Below are positions 1 to 18,861 of a stretch of DNA of 64,000 bases, piece after piece. The position numbers were made by a program, and so were the translations under genes. The notes beneath the pieces were generated by a model, which worked only from the letters and a program-made list of their open reading frames with translations, did not search any database and was not told the origin of the DNA. Where the stretch lies: positions 110,536 through 174,535 of the IMG/VR virus record IMGVR_UViG_3300044297_000138; one strand, written 5' to 3'. The first letter of the stretch is position 1, and every line of letters begins with the position of its first letter. Origin of the DNA: a virus (lineage: Duplodnaviria > Caudoviricetes).

Positions 1-676
1 CCTATTCATTGTTACCTCAGCACTAAAACCTTTAGGTGGTGCATTTAGTGATGGCGAAAGATTCCAACAAACTGTTGATGGAATTAGGTCTATAAGAAAG
101 GTTCTTCCGGATGCAATTATTGTGACTTCTGATGTGTCGGTCCGACCTCTATCGGAAATGGAAAGAAATGGGATTGCAAAACTATCAAATATATTTGTTG
201 ATATGTCACAAGATCAAGTTGTTATGGATTTATCTAACAAAGGAATGAAAAGTCTTGCTGAGAATGTATTGTTATTCAATACTATTCAAACGTTAAGAAA
301 TTCACCAGAAACAGCACAAATGATGAGTTCTGTAAAAAGAATTTTTAAATTTTCGGCCAGAACTATATTAGAAGATAGTTTTGACGCATCCGAATATGAT
401 GCCTTATTTGGTAAATTTGTTTTTAAAAAACGGATTCCTACATGGATGAATCCTCCTGTAATCTCAGACATTCTAATTACTAGGATGTTTTCTCTGTGTC
501 CGTCTTTAATTGATACATATTTGAGTGTGGTTGGTCAAAATATACAAGCCATACAACAAGGATTTGATACCGAACATGCACATTTTCACAACATTCCAAA
601 ACAACATTTAGTTGAGTTTGATAAACTACATTGTCACGGATGGCTGGCTGGAAATGGTAAAATTGAGTATTATTGA
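1..676 (+). CDS. Hypothetical protein, 5'-truncated (possibly glycosyltransferase-associated)
   Basis: Frame is open from the window start (LFIVTSALKPLGG...), so the track start at 122 is not the real start. No decisive motif. Confidence 0.45.
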   Translation, partial: LFIVTSALKPLGGAFSDGERFQQTVDGIRSIRKVLPDAIIVTSDVSVRPLSEMERNGIAKLSNIFVDMSQDQVVMDLSNKGMKSLAENVLLFNTIQTLRNSPETAQMMSSVKRIFKFSARTILEDSFDASEYDALFGKFVFKKRIPTWMNPPVISDILITRMFSLCPSLIDTYLSVVGQNIQAIQQGFDTEHAHFHNIPKQHLVEFDKLHCHGWLAGNGKIEYY

Positions 677-731
677 CGCTATATATCGTTTCCAACATTT
701 GTTTGGTTCTAGACCATACATTTAAATCTTA

Positions 732-739
732 TATAAATA
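732..739 (+). promoter_or_regulatory. T4-type late promoter TATAAATA
   Basis: Exact gp55 consensus in the intergenic region, about 40 nt upstream of ATG 781. Confidence 0.7.
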
Positions 740-780
740 TACCGCTGGCAACCAAAGTGTGTTGCATCCTAGAGGTACTA

Positions 781-1983
781 ATGTTAACTTTCAAGAGTTT
801 TTTAAAAGAACAAACTGATCCTGAAGAAGGCGCAAGCCGCCAAATAAAACATCTAACACATGTTGAGGATCGTCCTTTGCAAAAGGGAGAATCTGGATTT
901 AAACATGCCATCGGTTCACTAACGTCTGCGGCTGATCACATTGCAAAAGGTAAAAAGACTTCCGAACTCACAACAAAATATGATGGTTCACCAGCTATTG
1001 TTTATGGTCATCATCCAAAGAATGGTAAATTTTTTGTTGCTTCAAAGTCAGCTTTCAATAAAACACCAAAAATAAATTACACACCACAAGATATAGAAAA
1101 GAATCATGGCCATGCACCAGGTCTGGTTAGCAAATTAAAAGACGCATTAGAAAACTTACCAAAAATTGCACCAAAAGAAGGTGTCTATCAGGGTGATATG
1201 ATGTTTGGAAGTAGTAAGGGTGATAAAATTAAAGAAAAAGATGGCGGTCAGTCTTTTCATCCAAATCCATCAGGACTAACTTATACTGCCCACGGTGATG
1301 AAGCAAATAAAGTTAAAAAAGCCAAAATTGGTGTTGTTACACATCTTTCATATCATGGTGATGATGCATCAAATTTAAATGCATCACATGAAGTTAATCA
1401 CGAAAAATTTCAACAACACCCGGATGTTTATTCTGTAGATCCAAGAATGGACACAAGTAAAGTTCATTTCAGTCCAAAAGAAAAAAAAGAATTTGATAAA
1501 CATATCAGAGCTGCACAAGCTTTACATGACACACACGGTAGTGACATGTATGCAGGCACAAGAGATCACCAAGGTGTTGGTGGTCATTTGGAAACATATA
1601 TGAATCATACGGTTAGAACCGGTGAAGAACCAAACCATGAAAACTTTAAAAATTGGCTTGAAACTAAGACAAACAAAGACATTGACAAACTAAAAGTTGA
1701 AAAGAACAAACAAACAAAACAAAAAGCTTTGTCTGATGAATTAGGTAAAGTCGAAAGAAACAAAAAACATTATAACAATCTTTTCAAATTACACAAGCAT
1801 TTACAGAGCGCCAAGAATGTTTTAATAGGTGTATTAAATCAGCACCAAGAATTTCAACACAAACACGCAGGTGAAGATGCTAATCCAGAAGGTTATGTTT
1901 TTCATCACAACAACGATTCAGATAAACTTGTAAATCGTGCTGAATTTTCTCGTAGAAATTTTGCTGGTATAAGGAACATTTAA
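781..1983 (+). CDS. DUF6267-like protein with ATP-dependent ligase/nucleotidyltransferase motifs; probable internal head protein
   Basis: KHLTHVED N-terminal motif; ligase-like motifs TTKYDG (KxDG), YQGD, EGYV, KLVNR. Start moved to ATG 781 (SD gagg; MLTFKSFLKE). Confidence 0.6.
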   Translation: MLTFKSFLKEQTDPEEGASRQIKHLTHVEDRPLQKGESGFKHAIGSLTSAADHIAKGKKTSELTTKYDGSPAIVYGHHPKNGKFFVASKSAFNKTPKINYTPQDIEKNHGHAPGLVSKLKDALENLPKIAPKEGVYQGDMMFGSSKGDKIKEKDGGQSFHPNPSGLTYTAHGDEANKVKKAKIGVVTHLSYHGDDASNLNASHEVNHEKFQQHPDVYSVDPRMDTSKVHFSPKEKKEFDKHIRAAQALHDTHGSDMYAGTRDHQGVGGHLETYMNHTVRTGEEPNHENFKNWLETKTNKDIDKLKVEKNKQTKQKALSDELGKVERNKKHYNNLFKLHKHLQSAKNVLIGVLNQHQEFQHKHAGEDANPEGYVFHHNNDSDKLVNRAEFSRRNFAGIRNI

Positions 1984-1984
1984 A

Positions 1985-2959
1985 ATGCCAATGTCTTTTA
2001 AAGGATTTTTAATTGTTGAAGGTCGTGGCAAAATGACAGCTTCTGGTTCAGCTGGCGCCGAACATGTAAAAAAATATGTCAATCCATTTATTGGTTCTAA
2101 AGATTATACACATACATTAGCTGCTGAACATGATGATTTGCCAGCAGGTTCACATGTTAAATTGAAATCGGTGTCAAATATAAACGGAAAATATCATGTT
2201 AATGCCGAAGATCAAACCGGTAATGAACATACAATTCCAATTTCAAAATTATTTAAACCAGGTGAAGCTCCTGCCAATAAAGGTCACGATTACGAAAGTA
2301 AATTTGTGGAAAGAATGAAAAAACACGATATTATGCCATCACATTTGTCTGGCGCAGGTTCTACAGCAGGAACAGATTTTGCTATTGAAAATAAAAAGAA
2401 GGGTGTTTTTCATCCGGCCACAGTTAATGGAAATTTGTTAAACGGCGAAACTAAAGATGGTGTTACAGCCGCAATGGGACAACTAACAATACATTACACA
2501 AAAGAAAAAGGTTGGCACATTGGAGATAAAGCAAGAAACAACCGACCTTTATATGCAAAACAAATTGAAAAATCTGGAATTTTGAAACATATGAATCAAC
2601 ATTTTTCCGATCCAGAAAAATCCGAAACTACAGCATCAGGTCGTGCAAAAACAGTAGAAATCAAACACCCTAATTTGGATCCAGCCGAATCTTATTTACA
2701 AGATCATCATGTTCATGTATTACAGGTTGGTGGTCATGGAACATATAGTGTCGGAAAATCCGATGCAACTGGACACGGATTGCCAAGAATAAGCGGCAAA
2801 GGTGTTTGGAGAATTCGTGAAAAACAAAAAGGTAATAAATTTGCTAGAACTGTTGCTTTTCATCCTGACGGTAAAAAAGGATTAAATAAGAGTAATGTTG
2901 ATTTAGATAATGACGAACACCTTTTTGCATTTAAGAAAACTATAGGACACAAAGATTAA
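1985..2959 (+). CDS. Hypothetical protein, possible PD-(D/E)xK fold, capsid-targeting-like N-terminus
   Basis: GHDYE...GTDF...GETK pattern; N-terminus MSFKGFLIVE. Confidence 0.4.
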   Translation: MPMSFKGFLIVEGRGKMTASGSAGAEHVKKYVNPFIGSKDYTHTLAAEHDDLPAGSHVKLKSVSNINGKYHVNAEDQTGNEHTIPISKLFKPGEAPANKGHDYESKFVERMKKHDIMPSHLSGAGSTAGTDFAIENKKKGVFHPATVNGNLLNGETKDGVTAAMGQLTIHYTKEKGWHIGDKARNNRPLYAKQIEKSGILKHMNQHFSDPEKSETTASGRAKTVEIKHPNLDPAESYLQDHHVHVLQVGGHGTYSVGKSDATGHGLPRISGKGVWRIREKQKGNKFARTVAFHPDGKKGLNKSNVDLDNDEHLFAFKKTIGHKD

Positions 2960-4816
2960 ATGAAATCGTTTTTAGAAAGACTGCAAGACGAATCTAAAAC
3001 ACAAAAGCCAGTTGTTATGGCTTTTGGTAGAATGAATCCACCAACTACAGGACATGAAAAGTTGGTGAATAAAGTTCATCAGTTGGCCAAAGATTACAAT
3101 GCAGATCACAAAGTTGTCATATCACATTCTATTGATGCAAAGAAAAATCCATTGGATCCAAAGACCAAATTAAAACATGCAAAACGTTTTTTCCCTGGTA
3201 CAAACATTGAAACATCCGATAAAGAGCATCCAACTTTCTTGCAACATGCCGCCAAACTATTTCAACAAGGACACGATCATTTAATTATGGTGGCTGGTTC
3301 GGATAGAGTTAAAGAATATGAACAAAAACTAAAACAATATAATGGAACTGCACAAGGTTCACTATATAACTTCAAAAAGATAGAAGTCAAATCTGCCGGA
3401 CAACGTGATCCTGATGCAGAAGGAACCGAAGGTATGTCAGCATCTAAAATGCGTGAACATGCTCAAAATAATGATTTTAATAGTTTCAAACAAGGAATTC
3501 CTTCTCATGTTCCAGAAAAACATGCCAGGGAATTATTCCGTGATGTTAGAAGTGGCATGGGTTTAAATGAAAATACCAACCGTGGTATGTTTAAGGCTGT
3601 TTTTGTTACTGGTGGTCCAGGTTCAGGTAAAGATATCATTCTGAGAGAAGCCATTGCTGAACAAAAATCTATTGAAATAAATCTATTACAAGCCTTTCAA
3701 TATCTAGCCGATAAACAAAAATTGTCCGAAAAGACTGATGATTACCGTAGAAATGCGATTCGTAATCGTAAACCATTGATTATTAATGGTCCAGCAGATA
3801 AACAAAATGAGATGTTTTGGGTTAAGGAAGAGTTGGAAGAACTAGGATACGACACGATGATGATTTTTGTTGAATCTTCCGATGAAGTTAGCAAAATAAG
3901 AAATGAAAAATTAACAAAGATGATTGCAGAATCCACCAGAAAAGTAAAGTGGAAACAAGCACAAGAAAGTAAAGAACAATACCAAAACTCCTTTGAACAA
4001 TTTATCAGTTTGAACAATAGTGGTTCTTTGGAAGAAATAGAAGAAGATATCACAGATATATACCTAAAAATCAATAATTTTATTGAAGTTAAAATACTGA
4101 ACGAAGAAGCTTACGTATGGTTAGAAAACCACGGTAAGCTAAATAATATCATTAACCATTCTTTTGTTGAGGAAGAAAATCATGTTAAAAAAGATTCTAG
4201 ATTTATTCAAAGGCTCAAAGAAAGCAGAGGAAAGCCATCCTCTGGACTTCACGGAAAGAACAGCAGCGGTCCAAGACTCTACTCAGCCGGAGGTCCAGCA
4301 GCCAGTGGTCCAGGAGATATCCCAGCCGACAACCGAGCAAGTGACTCAGGAACAGACGATATCAAGTGGAACAGAAACGCCAAGCGAGGAAGTTACATCT
4401 TTAGAACCTACACAGAAGCCAAAGAAGGGACGCTCAAAAAATTCCCAGAGCCAAAAGAAAGCAACTTCAGCAAAGACAAAGAAAAAGTAAAGAATAAGAA
4501 AAACAGATTTGTTGACTCACCAACAGTTAATCAAAGAGTGAGAAACCAATCTGGAATAGGATCTGAATTTGACACTCGCCAACAGGGAACAGTATACCCT
4601 ATGTCTGGATTAGGCGATGTTACTTACAGAGAAGAAAAGAATTTTAATAAATTTAGAAAAGTTATTAATGAATATAATGGCTTCCAAAATGACCAGGAAT
4701 CTGGTTTTGGTGGTACATTAGGTGGATCTGATAATAAAGAACCCATTGAGAATCCAAAAGACAAAGTAGGATATACCTACGACATAATAAAAAGAAAAAA
4801 GGCAGGCAAAAAATGA
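2960..4816 (+). CDS. Cytidylyltransferase/NadD-like nucleotidyltransferase fused to a P-loop kinase-like domain and a low-complexity tail
   Basis: FGRMNPPTTGH (TxGH), AGSDR, MSASKMR, then VTGGPGSGKD Walker A. Confidence 0.75.
   Translation: MKSFLERLQDESKTQKPVVMAFGRMNPPTTGHEKLVNKVHQLAKDYNADHKVVISHSIDAKKNPLDPKTKLKHAKRFFPGTNIETSDKEHPTFLQHAAKLFQQGHDHLIMVAGSDRVKEYEQKLKQYNGTAQGSLYNFKKIEVKSAGQRDPDAEGTEGMSASKMREHAQNNDFNSFKQGIPSHVPEKHARELFRDVRSGMGLNENTNRGMFKAVFVTGGPGSGKDIILREAIAEQKSIEINLLQAFQYLADKQKLSEKTDDYRRNAIRNRKPLIINGPADKQNEMFWVKEELEELGYDTMMIFVESSDEVSKIRNEKLTKMIAESTRKVKWKQAQESKEQYQNSFEQFISLNNSGSLEEIEEDITDIYLKINNFIEVKILNEEAYVWLENHGKLNNIINHSFVEEENHVKKDSRFIQRLKESRGKPSSGLHGKNSSGPRLYSAGGPAASGPGDIPADNRASDSGTDDIKWNRNAKRGSYIFRTYTEAKEGTLKKFPEPKESNFSKDKEKVKNKKNRFVDSPTVNQRVRNQSGIGSEFDTRQQGTVYPMSGLGDVTYREEKNFNKFRKVINEYNGFQNDQESGFGGTLGGSDNKEPIENPKDKVGYTYDIIKRKKAGKK
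4182..4490 (+). CDS. Candidate nested (overprinted) gene in the +1 frame inside 2960-4816
   Basis: SD GAGGA upstream of ATG 4182; late-promoter-like CTAAATA at 4139-4145; 102-aa product MLKKILDLFK... with an acidic Q/E/T/P middle and a basic tail. Confidence 0.55.
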   Translation: MLKKILDLFKGSKKAEESHPLDFTERTAAVQDSTQPEVQQPVVQEISQPTTEQVTQEQTISSGTETPSEEVTSLEPTQKPKKGRSKNSQSQKKATSAKTKKK

Positions 4817-6114
4817 TTAATCTTAACAAAAAAGATTCTGTTGCAGATTCAATAAAATCTATTTTAGAGAAAAAAGAGCTTTCTCCTAAACAGAAACAAA
4901 TTGCTAAAATGTCTCCACCAGCAGATAAGATTGATGCAGGCGATTTAGCTAAGCTTCGTTCTGGTCAGAAACCAGTCAAAGAAGCAGCCAAAATGAAAGA
5001 AGAAGTGACAGACACACTAAAAGGTCGTGAAAAGAAATCTGCCGATCCTTATTTGTCTAAAAAAGTTAAGATTGCTGGTGATGTAAAAGAAGAAGTTGAA
5101 CAAATTGAAGAAAAAGAAAAGTGGATTCAAAAGGCTATCAAAAAACCAGGTGCTTTACATAAACAACTACATGTTCCTGCTGACAAAAAGATTCCTGCCG
5201 AAAAACTAAAGTCAGCTGCCGAAAAGGGTGGTAAACTAGGTAAGCGTGCCAACTTGGCCATGACTTTGAAAAAATTCAAAGAAGAAAACGAAGAACATTC
5301 AATCTATGACCAGATGATTCAGGAAGTTCTTTCTAAAGACGCAAAAGCTGGTGATTGGATTCACGATTTCGTTCACTCTGATAATCCAAAGTTTGCTGGT
5401 AAGTCCAAAGAGAAGCGTAAGCAAATGGCTCTTGCTGCTTACTACGCAAAGCAACGTAATGAAGAAGTTGAACATGATATTTGTCCAGAATGTATGCAGG
5501 ATCCATGCGTATGTGGTGGAAACCATGTTGAAGAATCGGTTGAACAGATTGATGAATTGTCAAAATCAACTTTAGGTTCTTATGTGAAAAGTGCGGCAAG
5601 AGATGTTGGTGCTTCTCGTAAACTTTCCGCCGACTTCCAGAATCAGGCAGATAAGGCTAGAAAACCTAGTTCAAAAGCAGCATCATCTAGTCTTTCCAAA
5701 AAATTCATGGCCACAGCCCAAAAGCGACATGCAGGTATTGGCAAAGCAGTCGAGCGTTTGACCAAAGAAGAATCTGAACAAGTAGAAGAAAACGCATTTG
5801 ATTGGAAGAAACCAAAACCACCAGAATCAAAAGGTGGTTCAGGTGTTAAAGCTGGTCGTGCATATGGTGGTGCTGCACAAAAGAGCAAACCAGAGCATGA
5901 CGAACCAGAAGATAAAAAAAAAGTAACTGAATCTAAAAGACCAGAAACCGATAATGTTCCATTTGAAGGACCATACAATTCAACATCCAATCCGGTTATA
6001 ACAGATAAATCTGGTGCAAAACATACACCAATGTCTAGAGTCAAACACTTGGCCAAACAAGCGATGAAAAAAGTTAAAACTGAAATGCTTGGCAAAACAG
6101 GTACTTCTGAATAA
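4813..6114 (+). CDS. Modular Lys/Glu-rich probable internal head (poly)protein
   Basis: Repeated EEvEQIdE linkers between small modules. Confidence 0.55.
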   Translation: MINLNKKDSVADSIKSILEKKELSPKQKQIAKMSPPADKIDAGDLAKLRSGQKPVKEAAKMKEEVTDTLKGREKKSADPYLSKKVKIAGDVKEEVEQIEEKEKWIQKAIKKPGALHKQLHVPADKKIPAEKLKSAAEKGGKLGKRANLAMTLKKFKEENEEHSIYDQMIQEVLSKDAKAGDWIHDFVHSDNPKFAGKSKEKRKQMALAAYYAKQRNEEVEHDICPECMQDPCVCGGNHVEESVEQIDELSKSTLGSYVKSAARDVGASRKLSADFQNQADKARKPSSKAASSSLSKKFMATAQKRHAGIGKAVERLTKEESEQVEENAFDWKKPKPPESKGGSGVKAGRAYGGAAQKSKPEHDEPEDKKKVTESKRPETDNVPFEGPYNSTSNPVITDKSGAKHTPMSRVKHLAKQAMKKVKTEMLGKTGTSE

Positions 6115-6123
6115 GGTATAGAA

Positions 6124-7242
6124 ATGACTAAAAAAGCAAAAATAGTCAAAGATGCAGTAAAAGGATGTGGGTGCGAAAAACCCACATTCGGTACTGATCC
6201 TAGAGATCCTTGGTCTGCAAAGGCAAACATTACCGAAAGTGCTTTACTGAATAGATATTTAAAATCTAGAGGTATCAATCCAGAATTTGCTTCTAAGGAT
6301 ACAAAAGTTGCACACTCAAAAACAAATGCATTTAAAGTTTGGGCAACTGCACATTTGAACGATCCAGTTAAAGAATCTATGTCGGATGAACATACACCGA
6401 CAGAAAAAAGATTACATACTCTAAAAAGAGCTATGCACTATAATAAAGAAATTCGTGTTGCGGATGGTCATAAACAACTACACTCTGAATCCGTAGATAA
6501 AGAAGATGTGATTGCTTTTGATATTCCTCTGTTAATTCGTATGTTTGAATATGCTCGTGAAGATGCAAAGACAGATATGGATTTACATAAGGTTGTGGAA
6601 AAATTAATTAAAATCCGCAAAAAAGGCACCTTGACGATGAAAGACTATAAGTTCGTTACTTCAATTCGTGAAGAGGTGCAAAGTGCTGGTGTTCAGTTGA
6701 ATGAATTGTCACCAGAACTTCTAAATCGTTACAGAGACAAAGCTGGAGAATCAGCCAAAGAATTGGCCAATAAAGGCGAATATAAAAAGTCTAATAAACG
6801 TTGGATGGGTCACATGAAGTCTACCGGAAAACAGATTGAAAAGATGTTCAATAAAGAAGATGTTTTCCATGGATCAACCGCAGCCACACAAATGCCTTTT
6901 GACGGCGCAAACAATCCGGACGATGTTATTCCTGCAAAACGCAAAAATGTGAAAGAAATGTCAAAATCAGCAAGGATCATCAAATCCATTTACAAACGTA
7001 AGAATGTAAAAGAAGAATTGTATGACCATGAAAAAGAAGATAAATCTGTTGCAACCTACGGTAAAAAACCCAAGTTCCAAAAACCTGGTGTTGATAGTGA
7101 AACAAAAGAATCACCACAAGCCGCAGCAGTTTTAAGTGGTGGAAAGACTATGACAGGTGCTTCAAGAGACACCATTGAAATTGATCCTATGATGAAAACC
7201 AAAAAACAAGCAATTTTCGGCTCACAGAAACCAATTAAATAA
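6124..7242 (+). CDS. Modular probable internal head protein
   Basis: Contains the LNELSPELLNRY module also seen in neighbours; many L/I/V-x-E sites. Confidence 0.5.
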   Translation: MTKKAKIVKDAVKGCGCEKPTFGTDPRDPWSAKANITESALLNRYLKSRGINPEFASKDTKVAHSKTNAFKVWATAHLNDPVKESMSDEHTPTEKRLHTLKRAMHYNKEIRVADGHKQLHSESVDKEDVIAFDIPLLIRMFEYAREDAKTDMDLHKVVEKLIKIRKKGTLTMKDYKFVTSIREEVQSAGVQLNELSPELLNRYRDKAGESAKELANKGEYKKSNKRWMGHMKSTGKQIEKMFNKEDVFHGSTAATQMPFDGANNPDDVIPAKRKNVKEMSKSARIIKSIYKRKNVKEELYDHEKEDKSVATYGKKPKFQKPGVDSETKESPQAAAVLSGGKTMTGASRDTIEIDPMMKTKKQAIFGSQKPIK

Positions 7243-7277
7243 ATACAACATAACCCTCGGTTAAAAGGAGAATAAGA

Positions 7278-7643
7278 ATGTCATCTTGGGGAAACAACGA
7301 TAATTCAGCTAACGCTCCATATTGGGCAGTTAGTTCCGCAATAGCACACAGTACAGCTGCAGTTAAAGTATCTGCACCAACAGCATCTAATGTTGCTATT
7401 TTGTATGCAAATACCACTTCCGGCGCATATATTGCCGGAGAAACTATTGGTCTTTTTGCTATTGATGCGGCCGAACAAGCCAATAATCAACAACAACATG
7501 CCATTCCACATACCGGTTGGGTTTATAAAACCACTGGTTCTGGTGGACGTGCAGGTAGAACACAATATGAAGTTCTTGTTGCCTTAGCACAAGTTAAAGG
7601 TGATGGCGATAACGGACTGATTGCAAATACTGCCAATCCATAA
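7278..7643 (+). CDS. Probable virion structural protein
   Basis: Ala/Asn/Gly-rich, starts MSSWG, strong SD aaggag, TAAATA upstream. Confidence 0.45.
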   Translation: MSSWGNNDNSANAPYWAVSSAIAHSTAAVKVSAPTASNVAILYANTTSGAYIAGETIGLFAIDAAEQANNQQQHAIPHTGWVYKTTGSGGRAGRTQYEVLVALAQVKGDGDNGLIANTANP

Positions 7644-7673
7644 TTAAAACAGGAGTTATAACTCCGATATACA

Positions 7674-8060
7674 ATGTTTGATGATTTGAATGATGAAAAT
7701 TTCGTGATGTATGCGGTGAAACATTATAATTCACCACAATGCATTATGTCAGAATTTGAGGGAGATATCAAGCGTACCAAGTATCTGAAAAGATTGTTTA
7801 GAAGATACAAAGTGACGAAATCACTAAAGGAACGCTTGATATTGAACCACATTATTCTATTGAACAATGTTTTTGGTCCAGAGGTCACAGCAAGAATATT
7901 GTTCTATAAAATAGATGAACGTGACTACGATATACTAAAGACATTTTTAGAATATCTCAATATTATGCCAGAAGCAGTATATGGTATCAGAGGTAAAAAT
8001 TTTTATTCTTCCGAGATACCATTAAATTCAGATATCGCAGAGGTATTATTAAAGATATGA
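7674..8060 (+). CDS. Conserved T4-like phage hypothetical protein
   Basis: F.M.A.K.Y...EF..D.KR.KY.KRL...LILNHII.L.NVFG pattern typical of T4-like core hypotheticals. Confidence 0.6.
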   Translation: MFDDLNDENFVMYAVKHYNSPQCIMSEFEGDIKRTKYLKRLFRRYKVTKSLKERLILNHIILLNNVFGPEVTARILFYKIDERDYDILKTFLEYLNIMPEAVYGIRGKNFYSSEIPLNSDIAEVLLKI

Positions 8061-8923
8061 AAACATTTAAAGAATATATCAACGAAGTCAAGAAGCCAAC
8101 AGGACAATTAAAAGATGCTTGCTGGTCAGGTTATACTGCTGTCGGCATGAAAGAAAAGAATGGTCGCAAAGTTCCTAATTGCGTACCTGAAGAAGTTGAA
8201 ATTCAAGAAGAATTCAAAAAAGGTGACAGAGTAAGACACAATGATGGCACATTAGGTACCGTAACTAGAGAACCAGATGAGCAAGGCCTAGTTCAATGGA
8301 AACATGCGGGAAATAAACACCGTGTAAGTAGTAAAAATGTTTTGAAATCTGCTGCCGATGAAAAATTTCGTTGGCGCCAGCAAAAAGAAGAAGTTGAACA
8401 GATTGATGAAATCAGTCAAAAAACTTTATCATCATATACAGCCAAAGCTTACAAAGATTATTCAGACAGATTAAAAGGCTGGACTAAAAAAGGTCCAGAA
8501 AACATGGCAAAAGCCGATAAAAGATTTAAAGGCTTAACTGCTGCTGCAAAAAGAGGACCAAAGACACATCAAGTTCCTCCTGGAAAAGAACCAGTAGATA
8601 AATCTGGACGTCCATACTGGGGTGAAGAAACAGAACAGTTGGATGAAAAGTCAGCAGCATGGCAACGTAAAGAAGGTAAGAATCCTTCAGGCGGTCTAAA
8701 TGCAAAAGGTGTGGCATCTTATCGCAGAGAAAATCCAGGTTCAAAATTAAAGACAGCTGTTACAACAAAACCATCCAAATTAAAACCAGGTTCTAAAGCA
8801 GCAAACCGCCGTAAGTCTTTCTGTGCAAGAATGGGTGGAATGAAGAAACGCCTAACATCAGCCAAAACTGCTCGTGATCCAAATTCACGCATCAATAAGT
8901 CACTAAGAAAGTGGAACTGCTGA
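8057..8923 (+). CDS. Modular internal head protein with DUF6321-like C-terminal domain
   Basis: N-terminus MKTFKEYINE; CWSGY...KVPNCVPE module; AWQRKEGKNPSGGLN...RKSFCARM...WNC. Confidence 0.6.
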   Translation: MKTFKEYINEVKKPTGQLKDACWSGYTAVGMKEKNGRKVPNCVPEEVEIQEEFKKGDRVRHNDGTLGTVTREPDEQGLVQWKHAGNKHRVSSKNVLKSAADEKFRWRQQKEEVEQIDEISQKTLSSYTAKAYKDYSDRLKGWTKKGPENMAKADKRFKGLTAAAKRGPKTHQVPPGKEPVDKSGRPYWGEETEQLDEKSAAWQRKEGKNPSGGLNAKGVASYRRENPGSKLKTAVTTKPSKLKPGSKAANRRKSFCARMGGMKKRLTSAKTARDPNSRINKSLRKWNC

Positions 8924-9102
8924 TGAAAACCTTTAGACAGTTTAATGAAGATGGCATGGCCGCAGCACCAACAAATAGTGTTTCTGGTGTAGCTGGTTCT
9001 GGTGATTCCAGATTACCTGCATCACAAAGAGAACCTGGTGTTTCCAAAAAAAGAACTCCAATAATCGTGAGGTTGGCTAGAAGAAAACTGCCAAATATGT
9101 AA
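8923..9102 (+). CDS. Small protein with capsid-targeting-like N-terminus
   Basis: MKTFRQFNE; ATG overlaps the upstream TGA. Confidence 0.5.
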   Translation: MKTFRQFNEDGMAAAPTNSVSGVAGSGDSRLPASQREPGVSKKRTPIIVRLARRKLPNM

Positions 9103-9537
9103 ATGTGGATATTAAAATGGTTACCTGATTGGATTTTTTATGGTATCTTGTTCATAGGTATCATAGGTTATATTGCCACATATCTTCTACGATTCATTCC
9201 ACTCCCCGCAGTCTACATGTATAAGACACCAATACAGTTGGTGTCTATTGCTCTTATTGTCATCGGTGTTTTTATGTCCGGCGCAATTCATAACGAAGCT
9301 GCATGGATAGAACGTGTCAGAGAATTGGAAGCAAAAATTGTTGAAGCTGAATCCAGGTCTGCGGAAGAAAATGTTAAGATTGTAGAAAAAGTTGTAACAA
9401 AGATTCAAGTTATCCGAGATAGAACTGATGTTGGCATCAAATACATTGACAGAGAAGTTGTTAAGTATGATAATACATGTGTGATACCAAAAGAATTTGT
9501 TAAAGCACATAATGATGCGGCGGAGCCACCAAAATGA
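9103..9537 (+). CDS. Inner-membrane spanin (Rz-like)
   Basis: N-terminal TM helices, coiled coil, C-terminal Cys; immediately upstream of a lipoprotein and the endolysin. Confidence 0.7.
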   Translation: MWILKWLPDWIFYGILFIGIIGYIATYLLRFIPLPAVYMYKTPIQLVSIALIVIGVFMSGAIHNEAAWIERVRELEAKIVEAESRSAEENVKIVEKVVTKIQVIRDRTDVGIKYIDREVVKYDNTCVIPKEFVKAHNDAAEPPK

Positions 9538-9797
9538 AATATTATTTGTTGATTCTTACACTCTGCTTAGTTGGTTGTTCAACTACTGTTCCTGTAACTG
9601 CTAAATTCCCAGATGTACCAAACAAACTTTTAGAACAATGTCCTAATTTGCAAAAAGTTAATGAAGAAGCAAAATTGAGTGATGTTGCAAAAACCGTAAC
9701 TGTAAATTATTCCACTTACTATGATTGTGCTGTGAAACATGATGCGATGATTGAATGGTATCAGATTCAAAAGAAAATCTATGAAAGTGTAAAATAA
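9534..9797 (+). CDS. Outer-membrane spanin lipoprotein (Rz1-like)
   Basis: Lipobox LVGC, Pro-rich region, extra Cys residues. Confidence 0.75.
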   Translation: MKYYLLILTLCLVGCSTTVPVTAKFPDVPNKLLEQCPNLQKVNEEAKLSDVAKTVTVNYSTYYDCAVKHDAMIEWYQIQKKIYESVK

Positions 9798-10420
9798 TGG
9801 AATTGACAAAAGAACAACTAAAACAATTACTGCCAAAAAATCCATATATTGATTACTGGTATAATGCATTATCACAACTATTGCCTGATTATGAAATCAA
9901 TAATGCAAAACGTATTGCGGCTTTTATTGCTCAATGTTCACATGAGTCTGGTGGTTTTACAGCATTAGAAGAAAATTTAAATTACAAAGCTGCAACACTA
10001 CGTAAAATATTTCCAAAGTATTTTCCAACAGATGAGATTGCAAATCAATATGCTAGTATGCCAAACAAACAACAAGCTATTGCCAACAAGGTATATGCCA
10101 ACCGCATGGGTAATGGTGATGAATCATCTGGTGACGGATTCAAATATAAAGGTCGTGGTCTAATCCAATTGACGGGTAAAGATAACTATACATTCTTTGC
10201 TGGTTCACTCGGTATTTCCGTAGAAGAAGCAGCAGAATACATGCACACATTTGAGGGTGCCGCACAATCTGCTTGCTGGTTTTGGGAAACAAACAATCTA
10301 AACCAATGGGCTGATAAGGGTGATATTCTTACACTAACAAAACGAATTAATGGTGGAACAATTGGTCTGGAAGATCGTATTAAACACTATGAACATGCAT
10401 TACATGTTTTGGGAGCATAA
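9797..10420 (+). CDS. Glycoside hydrolase family 19 endolysin
   Basis: AFIAQCSHESGGF, GRGLIQLTG, TKRINGG motifs. Confidence 0.9.
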   Translation: MELTKEQLKQLLPKNPYIDYWYNALSQLLPDYEINNAKRIAAFIAQCSHESGGFTALEENLNYKAATLRKIFPKYFPTDEIANQYASMPNKQQAIANKVYANRMGNGDESSGDGFKYKGRGLIQLTGKDNYTFFAGSLGISVEEAAEYMHTFEGAAQSACWFWETNNLNQWADKGDILTLTKRINGGTIGLEDRIKHYEHALHVLGA

Positions 10421-10422
10421 AG

Positions 10423-10704
10423 ATGCACGATTTAAAAATGATGAAATGGTTAGTGATATTGATTATGTTACCGGTTGGCCTTGCTTTTTTTGGTGGTGAT
10501 AAGTTTCGTTATCCTTGCCAAGATCCAGCTAATTGGGATAAAGACATTTGTAAACCACCAATCTGTGATGTGACAAGAACTTGTCCGGAACATGTATTTA
10601 AAGGACAGCGTGATCCTAGATTAGGTCCACCAAAAGATGGTGTAAATGGACCATTGCCATCAGCATCACCTGCACCAGCACAAGGAGTTAACTGTGGAAA
10701 ATAA
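10423..10704 (+). CDS. Small membrane-anchored Cys-rich protein
   Basis: N-terminal TM; RYPCQDPANW...CKPPIC...TCP. Confidence 0.5.
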   Translation: MHDLKMMKWLVILIMLPVGLAFFGGDKFRYPCQDPANWDKDICKPPICDVTRTCPEHVFKGQRDPRLGPPKDGVNGPLPSASPAPAQGVNCGK

Positions 10705-11170
10705 TATACCATTTTTATATACAGAAGAACAGTTGATGGCTCGACTGAAATTCTTTATTGGTGTTTGCCTTGCATTGACACTAACAGGAATCGTATTCGT
10801 TGTATTATATTCTATCATCTTTGTTACACAACCACTTAATGCAATTTCACCTATTGACCAAAAATTCTTTGAGTTGATTATTCCTATCGCCACATTCTTG
10901 ACTGGTACTTTATCTGGTATCATGTTGGCTGGCAATAAGAAAGAAGATCAAGAAGCAATGTTGGCTGCACAAAAAATGGCACAAGATAACTTTGCTGAAA
11001 CCAAAAAAGCAATGACTGCACCTCCACCAGTTCAAAAAGTTGAACCTGTGTTTGCACCAGCAACAGGTACACAACCTCAAGTGCAACAACCACCATTGGT
11101 TACCACACAAGTAGTTACTGGATTCGGCGGCAAACCCGCACCAGCACCAGCACCACAACCGGAGATTTAA
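10694..11170 (+). CDS. Two-TM membrane protein (holin-like candidate)
   Basis: GTG start after SD aggag; two hydrophobic helices; Pro-rich tail; lies in the lysis cluster. Confidence 0.45.
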   Translation: MENNIPFLYTEEQLMARLKFFIGVCLALTLTGIVFVVLYSIIFVTQPLNAISPIDQKFFELIIPIATFLTGTLSGIMLAGNKKEDQEAMLAAQKMAQDNFAETKKAMTAPPPVQKVEPVFAPATGTQPQVQQPPLVTTQVVTGFGGKPAPAPAPQPEI

Positions 11171-11407
11171 ATGTTACAAGGTCTATTCAGCGATAGTCAC
11201 AATGGCACATTAAGTAGTAAAAGGGTTATTACATTTCTATCCTTTTTATTATGTGCATGGGGTTTTGTTGCAGATACTATGGGACATAAAGTAAATGCTG
11301 ACCTATTCAATTCATTAATGTATATTGTTGTTGCAGGTTTAGGGTTTACTGCTTCCGAGAAATTTACAACAATAAATAAAGAAACAAAATCTAAGGGGTT
11401 ACTATGA
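11171..11407 (+). CDS. Small two-TM membrane protein (holin-like candidate)
   Basis: SSKRV followed by two TM segments. Confidence 0.45.
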   Translation: MLQGLFSDSHNGTLSSKRVITFLSFLLCAWGFVADTMGHKVNADLFNSLMYIVVAGLGFTASEKFTTINKETKSKGLL

Positions 11408-11613
11408 AAATGTATGCAATATTTTTAGCCGTTGCGATGGCATTTGGTTCAGTTTCTGTTTACGCTGAGGCAGAAAAAACAAAAGTTTGTGTTGATGTTA
11501 AAGATAAAGATGGTAAACCAGTTAAAGATGCCAAAGGTAATGTCAAACAAAACTGCAAGGAAATGAAAGTCCATAAAAAATTAGAGGGCACAGAAGTTCC
11601 TCCAAAGAAATAA
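11404..11613 (+). CDS. Small secreted/periplasmic protein
   Basis: Signal peptide ending AxA; two Cys; Lys-rich. Confidence 0.5.
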   Translation: MKMYAIFLAVAMAFGSVSVYAEAEKTKVCVDVKDKDGKPVKDAKGNVKQNCKEMKVHKKLEGTEVPPKK

Positions 11614-11620
11614 TAAAAAA

Positions 11621-11926
11621 ATGGCAACTACCACCGAAAGATTAGGCATTGTTGAAACTAAGGTAGAAAACCTTAGTGAAAAATTGGATGATATTAAAGT
11701 TGATGTTAAAGAAATGCACGATTGTTTAGATAGAACCCGTGATGAATTAAAAGATCAACTATCAAGGATGTATGACACATCATGTTCTCAACATGCCGAA
11801 ATGGCCAAAAAAATTGGCGAACTGGAAAAAATCCGAGAAAAAACTATGTGGATGGTTGCCGGTGCCGTTGCCATGGCTGGTATATTTTCGGGTCACCTGG
11901 ACAAGTTGCTTGCATTTTTACATTAA
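11621..11926 (+). CDS. Coiled-coil protein with C-terminal TM
   Basis: Heptad pattern and hydrophobic C-terminus. Confidence 0.5.
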   Translation: MATTTERLGIVETKVENLSEKLDDIKVDVKEMHDCLDRTRDELKDQLSRMYDTSCSQHAEMAKKIGELEKIREKTMWMVAGAVAMAGIFSGHLDKLLAFLH

Positions 11927-11968
11927 TTAGTATATAATTGAGTTTCTTGTAAACATTTTGTCTTTGTT

Positions 11969-12994
11969 ATGTCCGTTTTTATTGATAGAACCTTTCTGCT
12001 AAGGGTGTCCCCTAAGCTTCAAAAATTCACACAGAAAAAATCTGATCTTTATAATTTCAGATGCCCTATCTGTGGCGATTCTTCCAAAAATAAGACTAAA
12101 GCTCGTGGTTATATCTACGAGAAAAAAAATAACTATTTCTTTATGTGTCACAATTGTGGTGCATCCATGTCTTTTTACAATTTCCTGGATAAAGTTGATC
12201 CACACCTACTTAAAGAATATGCACTTGAAAGATACAAAAATGGTGAAGATGGAAAAGCAAACTATACAAAGCCTACATTTGAGATTGCTAAAGGCACTCC
12301 CACATTTAAATCCAAATTATCTTTACCGTCCATACAATCGTTGCCAACTGGCCATTTTGCAAAAGAATATGTGGAAAACAGGAAAATTCCCGAAACTCAT
12401 TTTTCATCGTTATATTTTGCCGAAGATTTTAAAAAGTTTGTTGAAAGCCTCGGCATTGAAAAAGACGGATTAAAAGAGGATGATCCACGATTGGTTATTC
12501 CTTTTTATGATGAAGAAAAAAATCTTGTGGCATTTCAAGGACGTGCTCTCGGTGAATCTAAACTGAGATATATTACCGTAAAAATTGATAAAGACAATCA
12601 CAAAGTTTTTGGTATGGACCGTGTGAGTGTTGACATGGATGATGAAGATAAAATGGTCTATGTCACAGAAGGACCTATTGACTCACTTTTTTTGGATAAT
12701 GCCATAGCAACAGCAGATGCAAATCTGAGGACAGCAGCTAAACACATTGATAAATCAAAGTTAGTATTGATTTATGACAATGAACCACGCAATAAAGATA
12801 TTTGCCGACAAATGGAACAGGCAATAGAGGAACATTTCAATATTGTTATATGGCCTGAAATGATTGAAGAAAAAGATATCAACGAAATGGTCTTGGCTGG
12901 TTTCTCACCTGACGAAATCCAAGATATCATAAGTAAAAATACATATCAAAATTTAAGAGCAAAAATTGAATTTGTAAATTGGAGAAAAACATGA
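11969..12994 (+). CDS. gp61: DNA primase (T4 gp61-like)
   Basis: Zn finger CPICGDS...CHNC; TOPRIM motifs EGPIDS and YDNEPRN. Confidence 0.95.
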   Translation: MSVFIDRTFLLRVSPKLQKFTQKKSDLYNFRCPICGDSSKNKTKARGYIYEKKNNYFFMCHNCGASMSFYNFLDKVDPHLLKEYALERYKNGEDGKANYTKPTFEIAKGTPTFKSKLSLPSIQSLPTGHFAKEYVENRKIPETHFSSLYFAEDFKKFVESLGIEKDGLKEDDPRLVIPFYDEEKNLVAFQGRALGESKLRYITVKIDKDNHKVFGMDRVSVDMDDEDKMVYVTEGPIDSLFLDNAIATADANLRTAAKHIDKSKLVLIYDNEPRNKDICRQMEQAIEEHFNIVIWPEMIEEKDINEMVLAGFSPDEIQDIISKNTYQNLRAKIEFVNWRKT

Positions 12995-13686
12995 AAGTAA
13001 CATTAATTAATTATTCACAAGGCCCCTTTGAAAACATTCTCGGTGTGGATGTACCATCTAAAACGAATCTTTTAGATCAAATCGCATACTGTGCCAGAGT
13101 ATCAAATCCTGCTAACCAAAACAACACGGAAACATCAGAAAAACTGGTCCGTTATCTGATTAAGAACCAACACTGGTCTCCGTTGGAGATGGTTTCCGTC
13201 TGTGTGGAAATTGAAACTACCCGTGATATTGCTCGACAGATTTTGCGTCACCGTTCCTTCTCTTTCCAAGAATTCAGTCAGCGTTATGCTGATGCATCAC
13301 AATTAGGTTTTGAATTGCGTGAACCTCGTTTGCAAGATACAAAGAATCGTCAAAATAGTGTTGAATTGAATACTGATGATGAGGATGACAGATTTATATT
13401 TTCTGAATGGAATCTTAGACAACAAGAAGTGATTGATTTAGTAGAAGAACACTATAATTGGGCTTTAGAAGCTGGTATAGCCAAAGAACAAGCAAGATCC
13501 ATTTTACCTGAAGGTAATACTGGTTCTCGCATGTATATGAATGGAACTTTGCGTTCTTGGGTTCACTATATACAACTCCGTTCAGCAAATGGAACACAAA
13601 AAGAACACCGTGAAGTTGCATTGGCCTGTGCTGATGCGATTGAACCTATTTTCCCAATGATTAAAGAATTTATAACACAAGAATAA
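12991..13686 (+). CDS. thyX: Flavin-dependent thymidylate synthase
   Basis: HWSPLE and RHRSFSFQEFSQRY ThyX motif. Confidence 0.95.
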   Translation: MKVTLINYSQGPFENILGVDVPSKTNLLDQIAYCARVSNPANQNNTETSEKLVRYLIKNQHWSPLEMVSVCVEIETTRDIARQILRHRSFSFQEFSQRYADASQLGFELREPRLQDTKNRQNSVELNTDDEDDRFIFSEWNLRQQEVIDLVEEHYNWALEAGIAKEQARSILPEGNTGSRMYMNGTLRSWVHYIQLRSANGTQKEHREVALACADAIEPIFPMIKEFITQE

Positions 13687-13695
13687 GGATAAAAT

Positions 13696-15507
13696 ATGCA
13701 ACATCTAGGAATCAAAATAGATTTAGAAAAAGATAAACTATTTGATGAATTGGGAATTAAAAGATTAAAAGAATCTTATATGAGAGATGATGAGGAAAGT
13801 CCTCAACAAAGATTTGCATATGTTTCAAAACAATTTGGTACAGATAAAGATCATGCACAAAGACTTTATGAATATTCTAGCAAACATTGGTTATCGTATT
13901 CTACACCGATTCTATCTTTTGGTCGTAGCAAGCGTGGTTTACCAATTTCTTGTTTCTTAAATTATATTGAAGATACTGCGGAGGGTTTAGTTGATAATCT
14001 TTCAGAAACTAATTGGCTTTCTATGCTTGGTGGCGGTGTTGGGATTGGTTTTGGTATTCGTTCGGCGGATGATAAATCTACTGGCGTTATGCCGCACCTC
14101 AAAATTTACGATGCATCTAGTTTGGCGTATCGCCAAGGTAGCACTCGCCGTGGGTCTTATGCTGCCTATCTTGATATTTCCCATCCTGATATTATTCCCT
14201 TCCTTGAGATGAGAAAACCGACAGGCGACCAAAATGTTCGTTGCCTGAATCTACATCACGGCATTAATATCACCGATGACTTCATGCAGATTATTGAAAA
14301 CTGCATGATTGATAAGGATGCGAGCGATGATTGGAAACTTATTGATCCGGCTTCAAATGAAATTCGTGAAGTTGTATCAGCAAGAATGTTGTGGGAAAAA
14401 ATTCTAGATTTACGTATGCATACGGGTGAACCATATCTACATTTTATTGATACGAGCAATCGTTTTCTTCCTGAGTGGTTAAAAGAAAAAAATTTAAAGA
14501 TACATCAATCAAACTTGTGTTCTGAAATTATTCTTCCTACAAATGAAGAAAGAACCGCTGTATGTTGTTTATCATCCTTAAATCTGGAGTATTATGATGA
14601 ATGGAAAGAAAATTCTGTCTTTCTCCGTGACGTTGCTGAAATGCTTGATAATGTACTTAATTATTTTATTGATAATGCTCCAGCAGCCATCGAAAGAGCT
14701 AAATATTCTGCTATGCGTGAACGCAGCATTGGTATTGGTGCTTTGGGATTTCATGCTTATCTGCAAAGAAAAGGCGTGGCGTTTGAAGGAGTGATGGCCA
14801 AAGTTTTAAACAATTCAATGTTCAAAAATATTAGAGAAGGACTTGACGATGCTAACTTGGTTCTTGGAAAAATTAGGGGTGAAGCTCCAGATGCTGTTGG
14901 CTACGGTAAACGTTTTAGTCATCTTATGGCTATTGCTCCAAATGCTTCTTCGTCTATCATTATGGGAAACACTAGCCCTAGTATTGAACCTTATCGTGCT
15001 AATGCTTATCGCCAGGATACGTTATCTGGCTCATTTTTGAATAAGAACAAATATCTAGATAAAGTGATTATGAATCATCTTTCTCCGGACGGTTCACCAT
15101 TGACACCAAAAGGTGAAGAATTTTATGCTGAAATTTGGTCATCAATTATTGCAAATGATGGATCGGTTCAACATTTGGATTGGATGGATGAAAACACAAA
15201 AGCAGTATACAAAACATCCATGGAAATTGACCAGCGTTGGGTAATTGAACATGCATCCGACCGTCAACAATATATTGACCAAGCGCAATCACTAAATCTA
15301 TTTTTCCGTCCAGATGTAAATATTAAATATCTACATGCAATTCATTTTATGGCATGGAAAAAAGGACTTAAAACTCTTTATTACTGCCGTAGTGAAAAAT
15401 TAGCCAAGGCAGATAAAGTGGCCAAAAAAATTGAAAGACAAGTTATCAAAGAACTTGATATGACACAGATTGCACAAGGTAACGACTGCATTGCCTGTGA
15501 AGGTTAA
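13696..15507 (+). CDS. nrdA: Class I ribonucleotide reductase alpha subunit (short form, no ATP cone)
   Basis: ISCF, SNLCSEI, APNASSS, KTLYY, C-terminal CIACEG. Confidence 0.95.
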   Translation: MQHLGIKIDLEKDKLFDELGIKRLKESYMRDDEESPQQRFAYVSKQFGTDKDHAQRLYEYSSKHWLSYSTPILSFGRSKRGLPISCFLNYIEDTAEGLVDNLSETNWLSMLGGGVGIGFGIRSADDKSTGVMPHLKIYDASSLAYRQGSTRRGSYAAYLDISHPDIIPFLEMRKPTGDQNVRCLNLHHGINITDDFMQIIENCMIDKDASDDWKLIDPASNEIREVVSARMLWEKILDLRMHTGEPYLHFIDTSNRFLPEWLKEKNLKIHQSNLCSEIILPTNEERTAVCCLSSLNLEYYDEWKENSVFLRDVAEMLDNVLNYFIDNAPAAIERAKYSAMRERSIGIGALGFHAYLQRKGVAFEGVMAKVLNNSMFKNIREGLDDANLVLGKIRGEAPDAVGYGKRFSHLMAIAPNASSSIIMGNTSPSIEPYRANAYRQDTLSGSFLNKNKYLDKVIMNHLSPDGSPLTPKGEEFYAEIWSSIIANDGSVQHLDWMDENTKAVYKTSMEIDQRWVIEHASDRQQYIDQAQSLNLFFRPDVNIKYLHAIHFMAWKKGLKTLYYCRSEKLAKADKVAKKIERQVIKELDMTQIAQGNDCIACEG

Positions 15508-15509
15508 TA

Positions 15510-16214: not shown

Positions 16215-16215
16215 A

Positions 16216-16653: not shown

Positions 16654-16664
16654 AAGGATAATAA

Positions 16665-17895: not shown

Positions 17896-17904
17896 GGAGA
17901 ATAA

Positions 17905-18835: not shown

Positions 18836-18861
18836 AATACTAAAAACTTTGAAAGTATATT

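Follow-up and report, generated by a model that had tools for sequence, protein, structure and literature searches.

The closest described counterparts of the genes considered here are the internal head proteins IPI, IPII and IPIII of phage T4 and its protein Alt, which share a ten-residue leader register, are basic, are accompanied by a gp21-family protease and follow a late promoter or, in the present case, a late-promoter-like motif, with unrelated cargo standing behind one leader and, in Alt, an enzyme as the cargo. The T4 genes ipII and ipIII both start with MKTYQEFIAE (NC_000866). Within the capsid-targeting sequence of IPIII, residues 4 and 7 serve targeting and residues 8 and 10 serve processing, and an Asp at position 10 blocks cleavage while targeting is kept (PMC9026906). 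A stretch of 64,000 nucleotides (hereafter the window), corresponding to bases 110536-174535 of the 174.5-kb IMG/VR virus record IMGVR_UViG_3300044297_000138, which is rated complete, contains three adjacent plus-strand genes whose products begin with related peptides: g781 (781..1983), a 400-aa member of the Pfam family DUF6267; g1991 (1991..2959, with a possible start at 1985), of 322 aa; and g2960 (2960..4816), of 618 aa. We consider it probable that these genes form a late operon for three enzymes, which a T4-type leader would direct to the core of the prohead; a gp21-type protease would then trim them, and they would be ejected with the DNA. In contrast to T4, the predicted cargo is unrelated in sequence to IPI-III and Alt, and its genes are found in the interval from gp41 to gp61 and not at the T4 ip loci.

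Other systems bear on the proposal to differing degrees. Phage P1 likewise loads large enzymes into its head and injects them before gene expression in the anti-restriction Dar system (DarA, DarB and others), although its lineage, targeting mechanism and enzymes are unrelated. The T4 capsid-targeting sequence and internal proteins are already known, as is the presence of cytidylyltransferases in cyanophage virions; one was detected in virions of S-CREM2, and the authors of that study suggested that virions may bring kinases and cytidylyltransferases with them into the cell (PMC10665884).

Source genome and operon structure

Judged by its gene content, the source is a freshwater T4-like myovirus of the Kyanoviridae type. 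Near-identical DNA is present in freshwater metagenomes of several studies, and a megablast search of window bases 1-20000 against deposited phage records gave no match, leaving the record without a close relative there. Homologues of gp20, gp21, gp22 and gp23 are located at 64-70 kb of the genome, and the gp61 primase is encoded at window position 11969. Homologues of the operon proteins are present in cyanomyoviruses, in the Pelagibacter phage HTVC008M and in the Methylophilales phage Melnitz, and in all these relatives they are located in the interval between gp41 (primase-helicase) and gp61.

An earlier, sequence-only reading of this DNA described three adjacent late-promoter genes. The adjacency was borne out, whereas three promoters were not: a T4-type late-promoter-like motif, TATAAATA, stands at 732..739 on the plus strand, 42 nt 5' of the g781 ATG, and no such motif was found directly before g1991 or g2960, where the gaps to the preceding gene are at most 7 nt. 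Because neither g1991 nor g2960 has a motif or spacer of its own, the three genes look like a single tight operon behind one TATAAATA. The motif occurs in 3 copies in the window, a number not above chance, and its weight lies in its position only. The only RNA library with related sequence holds a few contigs of 150-260 nt at 95-98% identity, one of which covers the g1991/g2960 junction (2839-3048); because carry-over of DNA into this library is possible, these contigs are at most a weak hint and are not counted as evidence of expression.

A modular N-terminal leader

The sequence-only reading also assigned T4-type capsid-targeting N-termini to the three proteins and listed the starts of two nearby ones, and all five peptides were found, at 781, 1991, 2960, 8057 and 8923, with a fit to the T4 register that differs between them. 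Defined strictly, this register reads M..[FYW]..[FYW][LIVM].E. The leaders of g781 (MLTFKSFLKE, 781..810, plus strand) and g8057 (MKTFKEYINE) fit it exactly, since positions 4 and 7 are aromatic, position 8 is aliphatic and position 10 is Glu; in g781 these are F4, F7, L8 and E10, in the register of T4 IPII and IPIII. The leader of g1991, MSFKGFLIVE, is shifted, in that Ile8 and Glu10 fit and the aromatic residues stand one position earlier; translation from the alternative ATG at 1985 would give MPMSFKGFLIVE. That of g2960, MKSFLERLQDE, is degenerate, in that only F4 and L8 fit while position 7 is Arg and position 10 is Asp, and that of g8923, MKTFRQFNE, fits in part (Asn at 8, Glu at 9). Among first-ATG open reading frames (ORFs) of the 174.5-kb genome the strict register is matched by g781 and g8057 only, plus one internal ATG, compared with about 0.03 matches expected per genome from amino-acid frequencies. 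A looser pattern recovers the five cluster genes and a few poor matches, and most other late and structural genes are without the leader.

The leader was then compared across homologues. Among 121 DUF6267 representatives that possess the N-terminal domain and are at most 50% identical to one another, the strict pattern is present in 53 and the looser pattern in 72, and the 53 strict leaders carry F/Y at position 4, F/Y/W at 7, L/I/V at 8 and E at 10. Most representatives carry 15-25 residues ahead of the HLxHxED motif described below, about 14 begin right at this motif, and the DUF6267 proteins of cyanophages S-PM2, P-HM2 and S-SZBM1 are without the leader. The g1991 family has the leader consensus SFKxFLIxEGRG, whereas members of the g2960 family mostly begin with MK[KS]FLEK[LI]xE and match the strict pattern in 0 of 120 cases. 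The motif is thus kept in the DUF6267 and g1991 families, whereas the g2960 family has a degenerate version of it.

The leader also heads several unrelated proteins encoded in the gp41-gp61 interval of Melnitz, HTVC008M and S-SM1; in Melnitz, five proteins of this interval bear it. When the g1991 family was aligned by hhalign with the unrelated Melnitz protein encoded upstream of DUF6267, the first 12 residues aligned and nothing else did. The leader lies outside the folded domains: on the predicted local distance difference test (pLDDT), residues 1-20 of the g781 AlphaFold2 model score about 50 and residues 1-10 of the g1991 model score 41, and structural alignments of g781 with RNA ligases start at residues 18-20, opposite residue 3 of T4 Rnl2. 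Since the leader is conserved beyond the rest of these proteins, is modular, stands on unrelated proteins and is excluded from the folded domains, it appears to be a signal and not part of a fold, and the comparisons support its reading as an N-terminal signal that is conserved, modular and set in the T4 capsid-targeting register.

The machinery for such a signal appears to be encoded by the phage. A gp21-family prohead protease (PF03420, Peptidase_S77, 114 bits) is located at genome positions 67041-67496, adjoined by gp22 and gp23 homologues, and an (I/L)LE site is kept near the N-terminus of gp23 in both this phage and S-SM1. The cluster proteins are all basic, as are the T4 internal proteins.

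Virion proteomes and transcription in related phages

By mass spectrometry, 41 proteins were detected in purified S-SM1 virions, including the putative cytidylyltransferase T4-GC190 with 25 counts and, likewise, T4-GC 1453, 1454, 1455, 425 and 426 (Sullivan et al. 2010, PMC3037559). All of these named products map to the gp41-gp61 interval of S-SM1. T4-GC190 is a homologue of the N-terminal domain of g2960 (SSM1_190; blastp 4.5e-42) at the same genomic position; it was published as an auxiliary metabolic or nicotinamide mononucleotide adenylyltransferase (NMNAT)-like gene, without mention of a leader, a ligase-fold partner or a kinase fusion. Leader status of virion-detected cytidylyltransferases was read in S-SM1 and S-SZBM1. 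The S-SM1 protein, SSM1_190, starts with MKKFSAFLNE, and no other ORF within the scanned 162 kb of that genome matched the strict pattern; the protein of S-SZBM1 (gene 140, S-SZBM1_140) starts with MRFRQFIIE. The adjacent DUF6267 protein S-SZBM1_141, which starts with MAKNTHLEHLED, is leaderless and absent from the list of detected virion proteins, and the leaderless DUF6267-cytidylyltransferase fusion of S-PM2 was not detected in S-PM2 virions.

Transcription in P-HM2 places genes 161-165, including DUF6267 (162) and a cytidylyltransferase (163), in the late class, with the adjacent gene 160 in the middle class (PMC5082946 supplement). Together, the data from relatives support a late, virion-associated module, and the few available cases fit the idea that the leader decides which of its members are packaged.

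The predicted ligase fold of g781

The product of g781 matches DUF6267 (PF19782) with E=9e-95, and an AlphaFold model built from an alignment of 76 diverse sequences reached a pLDDT of 92.9 and a predicted template modelling score of 0.91. A search of 48,161 chains with VIA-align, the method from which the ligase signal of g781 and the HhaI signal of g1991 both came, returned ligases for all 14 best matches, with Z scores of 8.1-6.1, root-mean-square deviations of 3.9-4.8 and 170-207 residues aligned. The Naegleria RNA ligase NgrRnl (Rnl5; Z 8.1), the ligase domain of fungal Trl1 (7.8) and trypanosome REL1 (7.8) lead the list and, with T4 Rnl2 (7.2), form the best structural matches (181-207 residues); T4 Rnl1 (6.5) and then several DNA ligases follow. 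Foldseek against the Protein Data Bank (PDB) also placed DNA ligases on top, but with E values of 0.06 or worse, and gave no PDB match at E<=0.001 for either g781 or g1991.

The ligase motifs I, III, IV and V that had been read from the single sequence are present and conserved across the 76 DUF6267 proteins. K66-x-D68-G69, Q137-G138-D139, E370-G371-x-V373 and K382 are invariant or nearly so, with K66, D68, G69, D139, E370, G371 and K382 invariant or at least 90% conserved, and the predicted catalytic Lys66 is encoded by bases 976-978. The order of motifs I (KxDG), III, IV and V is that of ATP-dependent RNA ligases; EGYV is identical to motif IV of T4 Rnl2, and KLVNRAEF resembles KCKNSKF of Rnl2. 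Like these RNA ligases, g781 has no oligonucleotide/oligosaccharide-binding (OB) domain. It differs from them in the absence of profile similarity, in a helical bundle of about 120 aa (residues 232-352) inserted before motif IV, in a motif V of the form KLVxR, in the frequent fusion of the family to a cytidylyltransferase-fold domain and in an HLxHxED motif before motif I. This last motif, at residues 22-29 (window 844-867), directly follows the leader; H24 and H27 are nearly invariant, T4 Rnl2 has SLENH at the structurally corresponding place, and we know of no equivalent in characterised ligases.

Sequence comparisons gave no such link. No match above chance level was found for g781 among PDB sequences (phmmer and profile searches), neither RNA_ligase (PF09414) nor DNA_ligase_A_M (PF01068) matched anywhere in the genome, and comparing the DUF6267 alignment with T4 Rnl2 by hhalign yielded nothing meaningful (probability 0.2%). 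The earlier description of g781 as a ligase-fold nucleotidyltransferase is thus upheld by fold and motifs and is left without a profile link to ligases, and because of this missing link the protein, which models as a ligase fold closest to RNA ligases, is not filed as a member of a named ligase family. Assignment as a gp30-type DNA ligase was considered and rejected, given the lack of an OB domain, the better structural matches to RNA ligases and the late expression of homologues.

A literature search found no paper on DUF6267. Of 150 representatives of the family, 40 combine it in one protein with a cytidylyltransferase-fold domain, in either order, and PHROG 455 joins the two; given these fusions, DUF6267 and the cytidylyltransferase-fold enzyme almost certainly act in one pathway. 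Of two long DUF6267 representatives (P0167 and P0168), one, a fusion with the cytidylyltransferase, also carries a Pol-beta-type nucleotidyltransferase domain, and the other carries a LysM peptidoglycan-binding domain. In a Pfam scan of nine long fusions, these single Pol-beta and LysM domains were the only additions to the parts already known, too thin a basis for assigning a function.

A predicted HhaI-like nuclease domain in g1991

The enzymes HhaI, HinP1I and MspI are monomeric PD-(D/E)xK nucleases with an (S/T)D...(E/Q/N)xK site. The AlphaFold2 model of g1991 (pLDDT 86.2) consists of an SH3/Tudor-like barrel at residues 19-92 (2045-2266) followed by a domain of the HhaI/HinP1I/MspI-like PD-(D/E)xK type at residues 96-317 (2276-2941), the latter identified by VIA-align and Foldseek. 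The nuclease domain matches HhaI (6uke_X) with Z=10.0 over 175 of 258 residues at 13% sequence identity, and the next unrelated hits, at about Z 7 and 3 units lower, match the SH3-like part only. Foldseek gave a probability of 0.84 for the same chain, and a search of a protein language-model atlas led to R.HinP1I-like clusters with a score of only 0.82.

In 64 sequences of the g1991 family, T128-D129 and E153-T-K155 are invariant, forming a TD-x23-ETK pattern that corresponds to the site of these type IIP enzymes and predicts D129 (2375-2377), E153 (2447-2449) and K155 (2453-2455) as catalytic residues. A leaderless paralogue of 248 aa, also without the SH3-like domain, is encoded 8 kb upstream at genome positions 104281-105027 and, over 174 aligned columns, has a textbook PD-x11-ELK at the same place. 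The earlier suggestion of a PD-(D/E)xK-like protein is strengthened by the fold match, the invariant residues and this paralogue. Compared with R.HhaI, R.HinP1I and R.MspI, g1991 adds the SH3-like domain and the leader, and the genome has no cognate C5 cytosine methyltransferase (PF00145), this being the one class of methylase searched for.

No Pfam or NCBIfam match was obtained for g1991. Its 195 homologues are all from related uncultured phages, and a profile of the family found no homologue in the gp41-gp61 intervals of HTVC008M, Melnitz, S-PM2 and S-SM1, suggesting that the nuclease is specific to this clade.

g1991 and its leaderless paralogue bracket a sugar-modification-like operon (L014:1796-7712 and window 2-676), which encodes, by Pfam matches, a family 2 glycosyltransferase (GT2), an S-adenosylmethionine-dependent methyltransferase, a DUF7796 pair, an aminoglycoside phosphotransferase (APH)-like kinase, a fusion of a nucleotidyltransferase with a haloacid dehalogenase (HAD) domain and a further gene. 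The target of this operon could be DNA or a surface glycan, a choice that bears on how phage DNA might be spared.

The nucleotidyltransferase and putative kinase domains of g2960

Behind its degenerate leader, g2960 has a cytidylyltransferase-fold (HIGH-type) domain at residues 12-206 (2993-3577; phage cytidyltransferase families phrog_3041, E=8e-69, and phrog_395, E=3e-47), a P-loop kinase-like domain at residues 207-398 (3578-4153; phrog_2071 ATPase E=8e-7) and a basic, Lys-rich tail of low complexity at residues 402-618 (4163-4813). A 108-codon ORF is present in another frame within the stretch encoding this tail, at window positions 4164-4490. The TxGH, GSD and SASKMR motifs and the Walker A motif noted earlier are real and invariant in the family, as T29-x-G31-H32, G113-S114-D115-R116, S160-x-x-K163-M-R165 and a GGPGSGK P-loop. 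The Walker A sequence, GGPGSGKD (residues 217-224, window 3608-3631), has Asp where Ser or Thr is usual, and this Asp is invariant in the clade; the kinase-domain homologue of HTVC008M is a separate gene with a canonical GKT.

Family-level matches to g2960 were marginal. PF01467 fell below the Pfam cut-off (15.1 vs 21) and is carried by relatives and by atlas clusters, Zeta_toxin reached 17.8 bits against a cut-off of 22.3, AAA_19 was also below its cut-off and adenylate kinase gave E=0.2. Of the proposed NadD-like/kinase fusion, the HIGH-type nucleotidyltransferase is retained and the P-loop domain stands as a putative kinase, whereas nothing specific supports the NadD/NMNAT assignment: no family-specific match was found in NCBIfam or the PDB, where the best sequence hits were to phosphopantetheine adenylyltransferase (PPAT) and MJ0951 at a marginal E of about 0.4-1, and no substrate class emerged from the NCBIfam or PDB-sequence searches (phmmer and profile). 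The bifunctional enzymes NadR (NMN adenylyltransferase and ribosylnicotinamide kinase) and COASY (PPAT and dephospho-CoA kinase) have the order of a HIGH-motif nucleotidyltransferase followed by a P-loop kinase that is also predicted for g2960, together with TxGH and SxxKxR motifs. In contrast to these enzymes, g2960 has no family-specific match, possesses the leader and a basic tail of about 215 aa, and has a Walker A motif ending in KD and not K[ST].

Neighbouring genes and other features

Downstream of the operon on the plus strand, two leaderless, basic, Lys-rich proteins (isoelectric point, pI, 9.4-9.6) are encoded at 4813-6114 and 6124-7242, the first with EEVEQIEE and EESEQVEE linkers. 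The region 8057..9102 encodes g8057, which combines the leader with a DUF6321 C-terminus, a pI of 10.0 and EEVEQIDE and EETEQLDE linkers, and g8923, a leader-bearing protein of 59 aa with a pI of 11.6. Linkers of the form EE-x-EQ-[ILV]-[DE]-E, located at 5089-5112, 5767-5790, 8387-8410 and 8624-8647, are confined genome-wide to g4813 and g8057. They end in (I/L)xE, the site type of T4 gp21, and are candidates for cleavage by the prohead protease in internal proteins that are basic and resemble polyproteins.

Elsewhere in the genome, the gp43 DNA polymerase is present as two ORFs (96148-97449 and 99050-100429) with about 1.6 kb between them, one corresponding to the N-terminal half of HTVC008M gp43 and the other to its C-terminal half; this division could reflect an intervening element or a split gene. 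The window segment 26000-37000 has a G+C content of 0.42-0.44, compared with 0.35-0.38 elsewhere, and contains many short ORFs, some on the minus strand; a tRNA scan of 23-38 kb found none.

Discussion

On the interpretation that we favour, the leader would attach each protein to the scaffolding core inside the prohead, and a gp21-type protease would trim it after Glu10 in g781 and g1991; g2960 may stay uncleaved because of its Asp10. The mature enzymes would remain in the DNA-filled head and be ejected with the genome, in which case their action would precede all phage gene expression. Judged by fold and motifs, the predicted cargo comprises a ligase-superfamily nucleotidyltransferase (DUF6267) closest to nick-sealing RNA ligases, an SH3-like domain joined to a nuclease that resembles monomeric PD-(D/E)xK restriction enzymes, and a HIGH-motif nucleotidyltransferase fused to a putative P-loop kinase.

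Several observations weigh against this interpretation. Packaging is well supported, but the evidence for it is indirect, as the published proteomes are those of relatives and cover the cytidylyltransferase homologue only, and the authors of the S-CREM2 study noted that abundant late proteins may co-purify with virions (PMC10665884). The virion-detected proteins SSM1_188, SSM1_191 and S-SZBM1_139 are without a leader, and the correlation between leader and detection is drawn from few cases. Cyanophage DUF6267 proteins are usually leaderless and were not detected in virions, which suggests that the enzyme is useful without packaging. The g2960 leader, moreover, breaks the rule at both position 7 and position 10. 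As for the predicted activities, the Z values of g781 are middling, so that its case is carried by the unanimous top ranks and the motifs, no sequence profile tied DUF6267 to a ligase family, and Lys66 is placed in a ligase pocket by motif order only. In g1991, residues 151-158, which include E153 and K155, were modelled at a pLDDT below 50, and a packaged nuclease would require protection of the phage DNA, for which no C5-methyltransferase was found.

These points leave room for other explanations, the strongest of which is that the enzymes act late in the cytoplasm and that the leader is a protein-interaction motif, for instance a tether to the sliding clamp like that of the proliferating cell nuclear antigen-interacting peptide (PIP) box. 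The hydrophobic 4/7/8 spacing of the leader resembles a PIP box, and human ligase I has its PIP box at the extreme N-terminus. The enzymes might then seal and trim nicks in concatemeric DNA before packaging, or provide the DNA ligase that cyanomyoviruses reportedly lack; the cluster has replication genes, gp41 and gp61, on either side, DUF6267 genes that lack the leader are late all the same and were not seen in virions, and cyanomyoviruses have no recognisable gp30 ligase (PMC2984593), just as this phage genome has no Pfam ligase match. We nevertheless regard this explanation as unlikely. The homologues are late and not middle like the replisome, the polymerase of this phage ends in ...SLEDFFS, a clamp-type motif of a different kind, and g781 comes nearest in fold to RNA ligases lacking an OB domain. 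An invariant Glu10 and a start at Met1 are explained by T4-type processing and not by clamp binding. In addition, the small, basic, non-enzymatic proteins g8057 and g8923 carry the same leader, and leader-bearing cytidylyltransferases are present in purified virions.

Packaging might also be granted and activity denied, with the proteins serving mainly as filling material of the head, either as counter-ions to the DNA or as accessories to the scaffold, and with folds that are catalytically dead relics. They are all basic (pI 9.2-10), like the T4 internal proteins, the tail of g2960 is long, Lys-rich and disordered and its Walker A has Asp for Ser/Thr, and the neighbouring products are basic, of low complexity and polyprotein-like. 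The predicted catalytic residues of g781, g1991 and g2960 are, however, invariant across hundreds of diverged homologues, and leaderless versions of the same enzymes are conserved too, which argues for enzymatic function and makes dead cargo quite improbable. Least credible of all is that the shared N-terminus is a by-product of selection for A/T-rich codons at the translation starts of highly expressed late genes, as could be supposed from a genome of 35-38% G+C in which genes open with codons such as ATG AAA ACT TTT AAA. Such selection would not account for a residue class kept at fixed positions where Phe and Tyr, and Leu and Ile, interchange freely, for the lack of the leader on most other late and structural genes, or for homologues with and without the peptide as a discrete module of 10-20 residues. 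Both of these explanations are thus disfavoured by the invariance of the catalytic residues and the conservation of the leader by residue class, and we hold it more probable that the leader addresses active enzymes to the head.

With respect to what packaged enzymes would do, the predicted set comprises a nuclease, a kinase, an adenylyltransferase and a ligase-like enzyme, which suggests a nucleic-acid end-processing kit that would cut, phosphorylate, adenylylate and seal host or phage DNA or RNA; we see this as the leading candidate while placing it somewhat short of an even chance. By analogy with the architecture of NadR and COASY, the kinase and adenylyltransferase might instead make an ADP-linked cofactor such as NAD+, feeding or complementing the ligase-like enzyme, a proposal that we hold to be possible yet clearly less likely. 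What likelihood is left falls to some role other than end processing or cofactor synthesis. The repair of RNA or NAD that the sequence-only reading put forward is, on this view, a hypothetical role.

As far as the literature was searched, the leader in marine and freshwater T4-like phages and its association with virion detection are new, as are the ligase fold of DUF6267, its fusion with a nucleotidyltransferase and a leader-bearing HhaI-like nuclease; the search found no paper in which cyanophage proteins are linked to the term 'capsid targeting sequence'. In T4-like phages of the sea and of fresh water, DUF6267 and its cytidylyltransferase partner rank among the uncharacterised genes with the widest distribution: they occur in 457 phage records and make up 3,304 clusters when grouped at 90% identity and 1,927 representatives when grouped at 50%. 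The cytidylyltransferase cluster T4-GC190 is a cyanophage core gene. Cyanomyoviruses seem to be without an activity that joins nucleic acids, and DUF6267 is proposed as a candidate for it.

The scattered findings of a virion 'cytidylyltransferase' are gathered here into one testable model, in which abundant environmental phages would inject enzymes and not only inhibitors. The natural leader-plus and leader-minus variants form a built-in experiment, and the leader offers a short targeting peptide for loading cargo into the capsids of non-coli T4-like phages. In its widest form, which we think rather doubtful, the model would have T4-like phages, in the ocean as in lakes, fill their heads beforehand with a kit for nucleic-acid surgery by means of a portable ten-residue capsid address. 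This kit, made up of the restriction-enzyme-like nuclease, a new RNA-ligase-like enzyme (DUF6267) and a kinase with an adenylyltransferase, would enter with the genome and act within seconds of infection. Should this be true, it might for example cut host DNA while modification by the upstream sugar operon protects the phage DNA, and heal and seal breaks made by the host in phage DNA or tRNAs before phage expression; depending on whether a lineage has the leader or not, the same enzymes would be injected or would work late in the cytoplasm.

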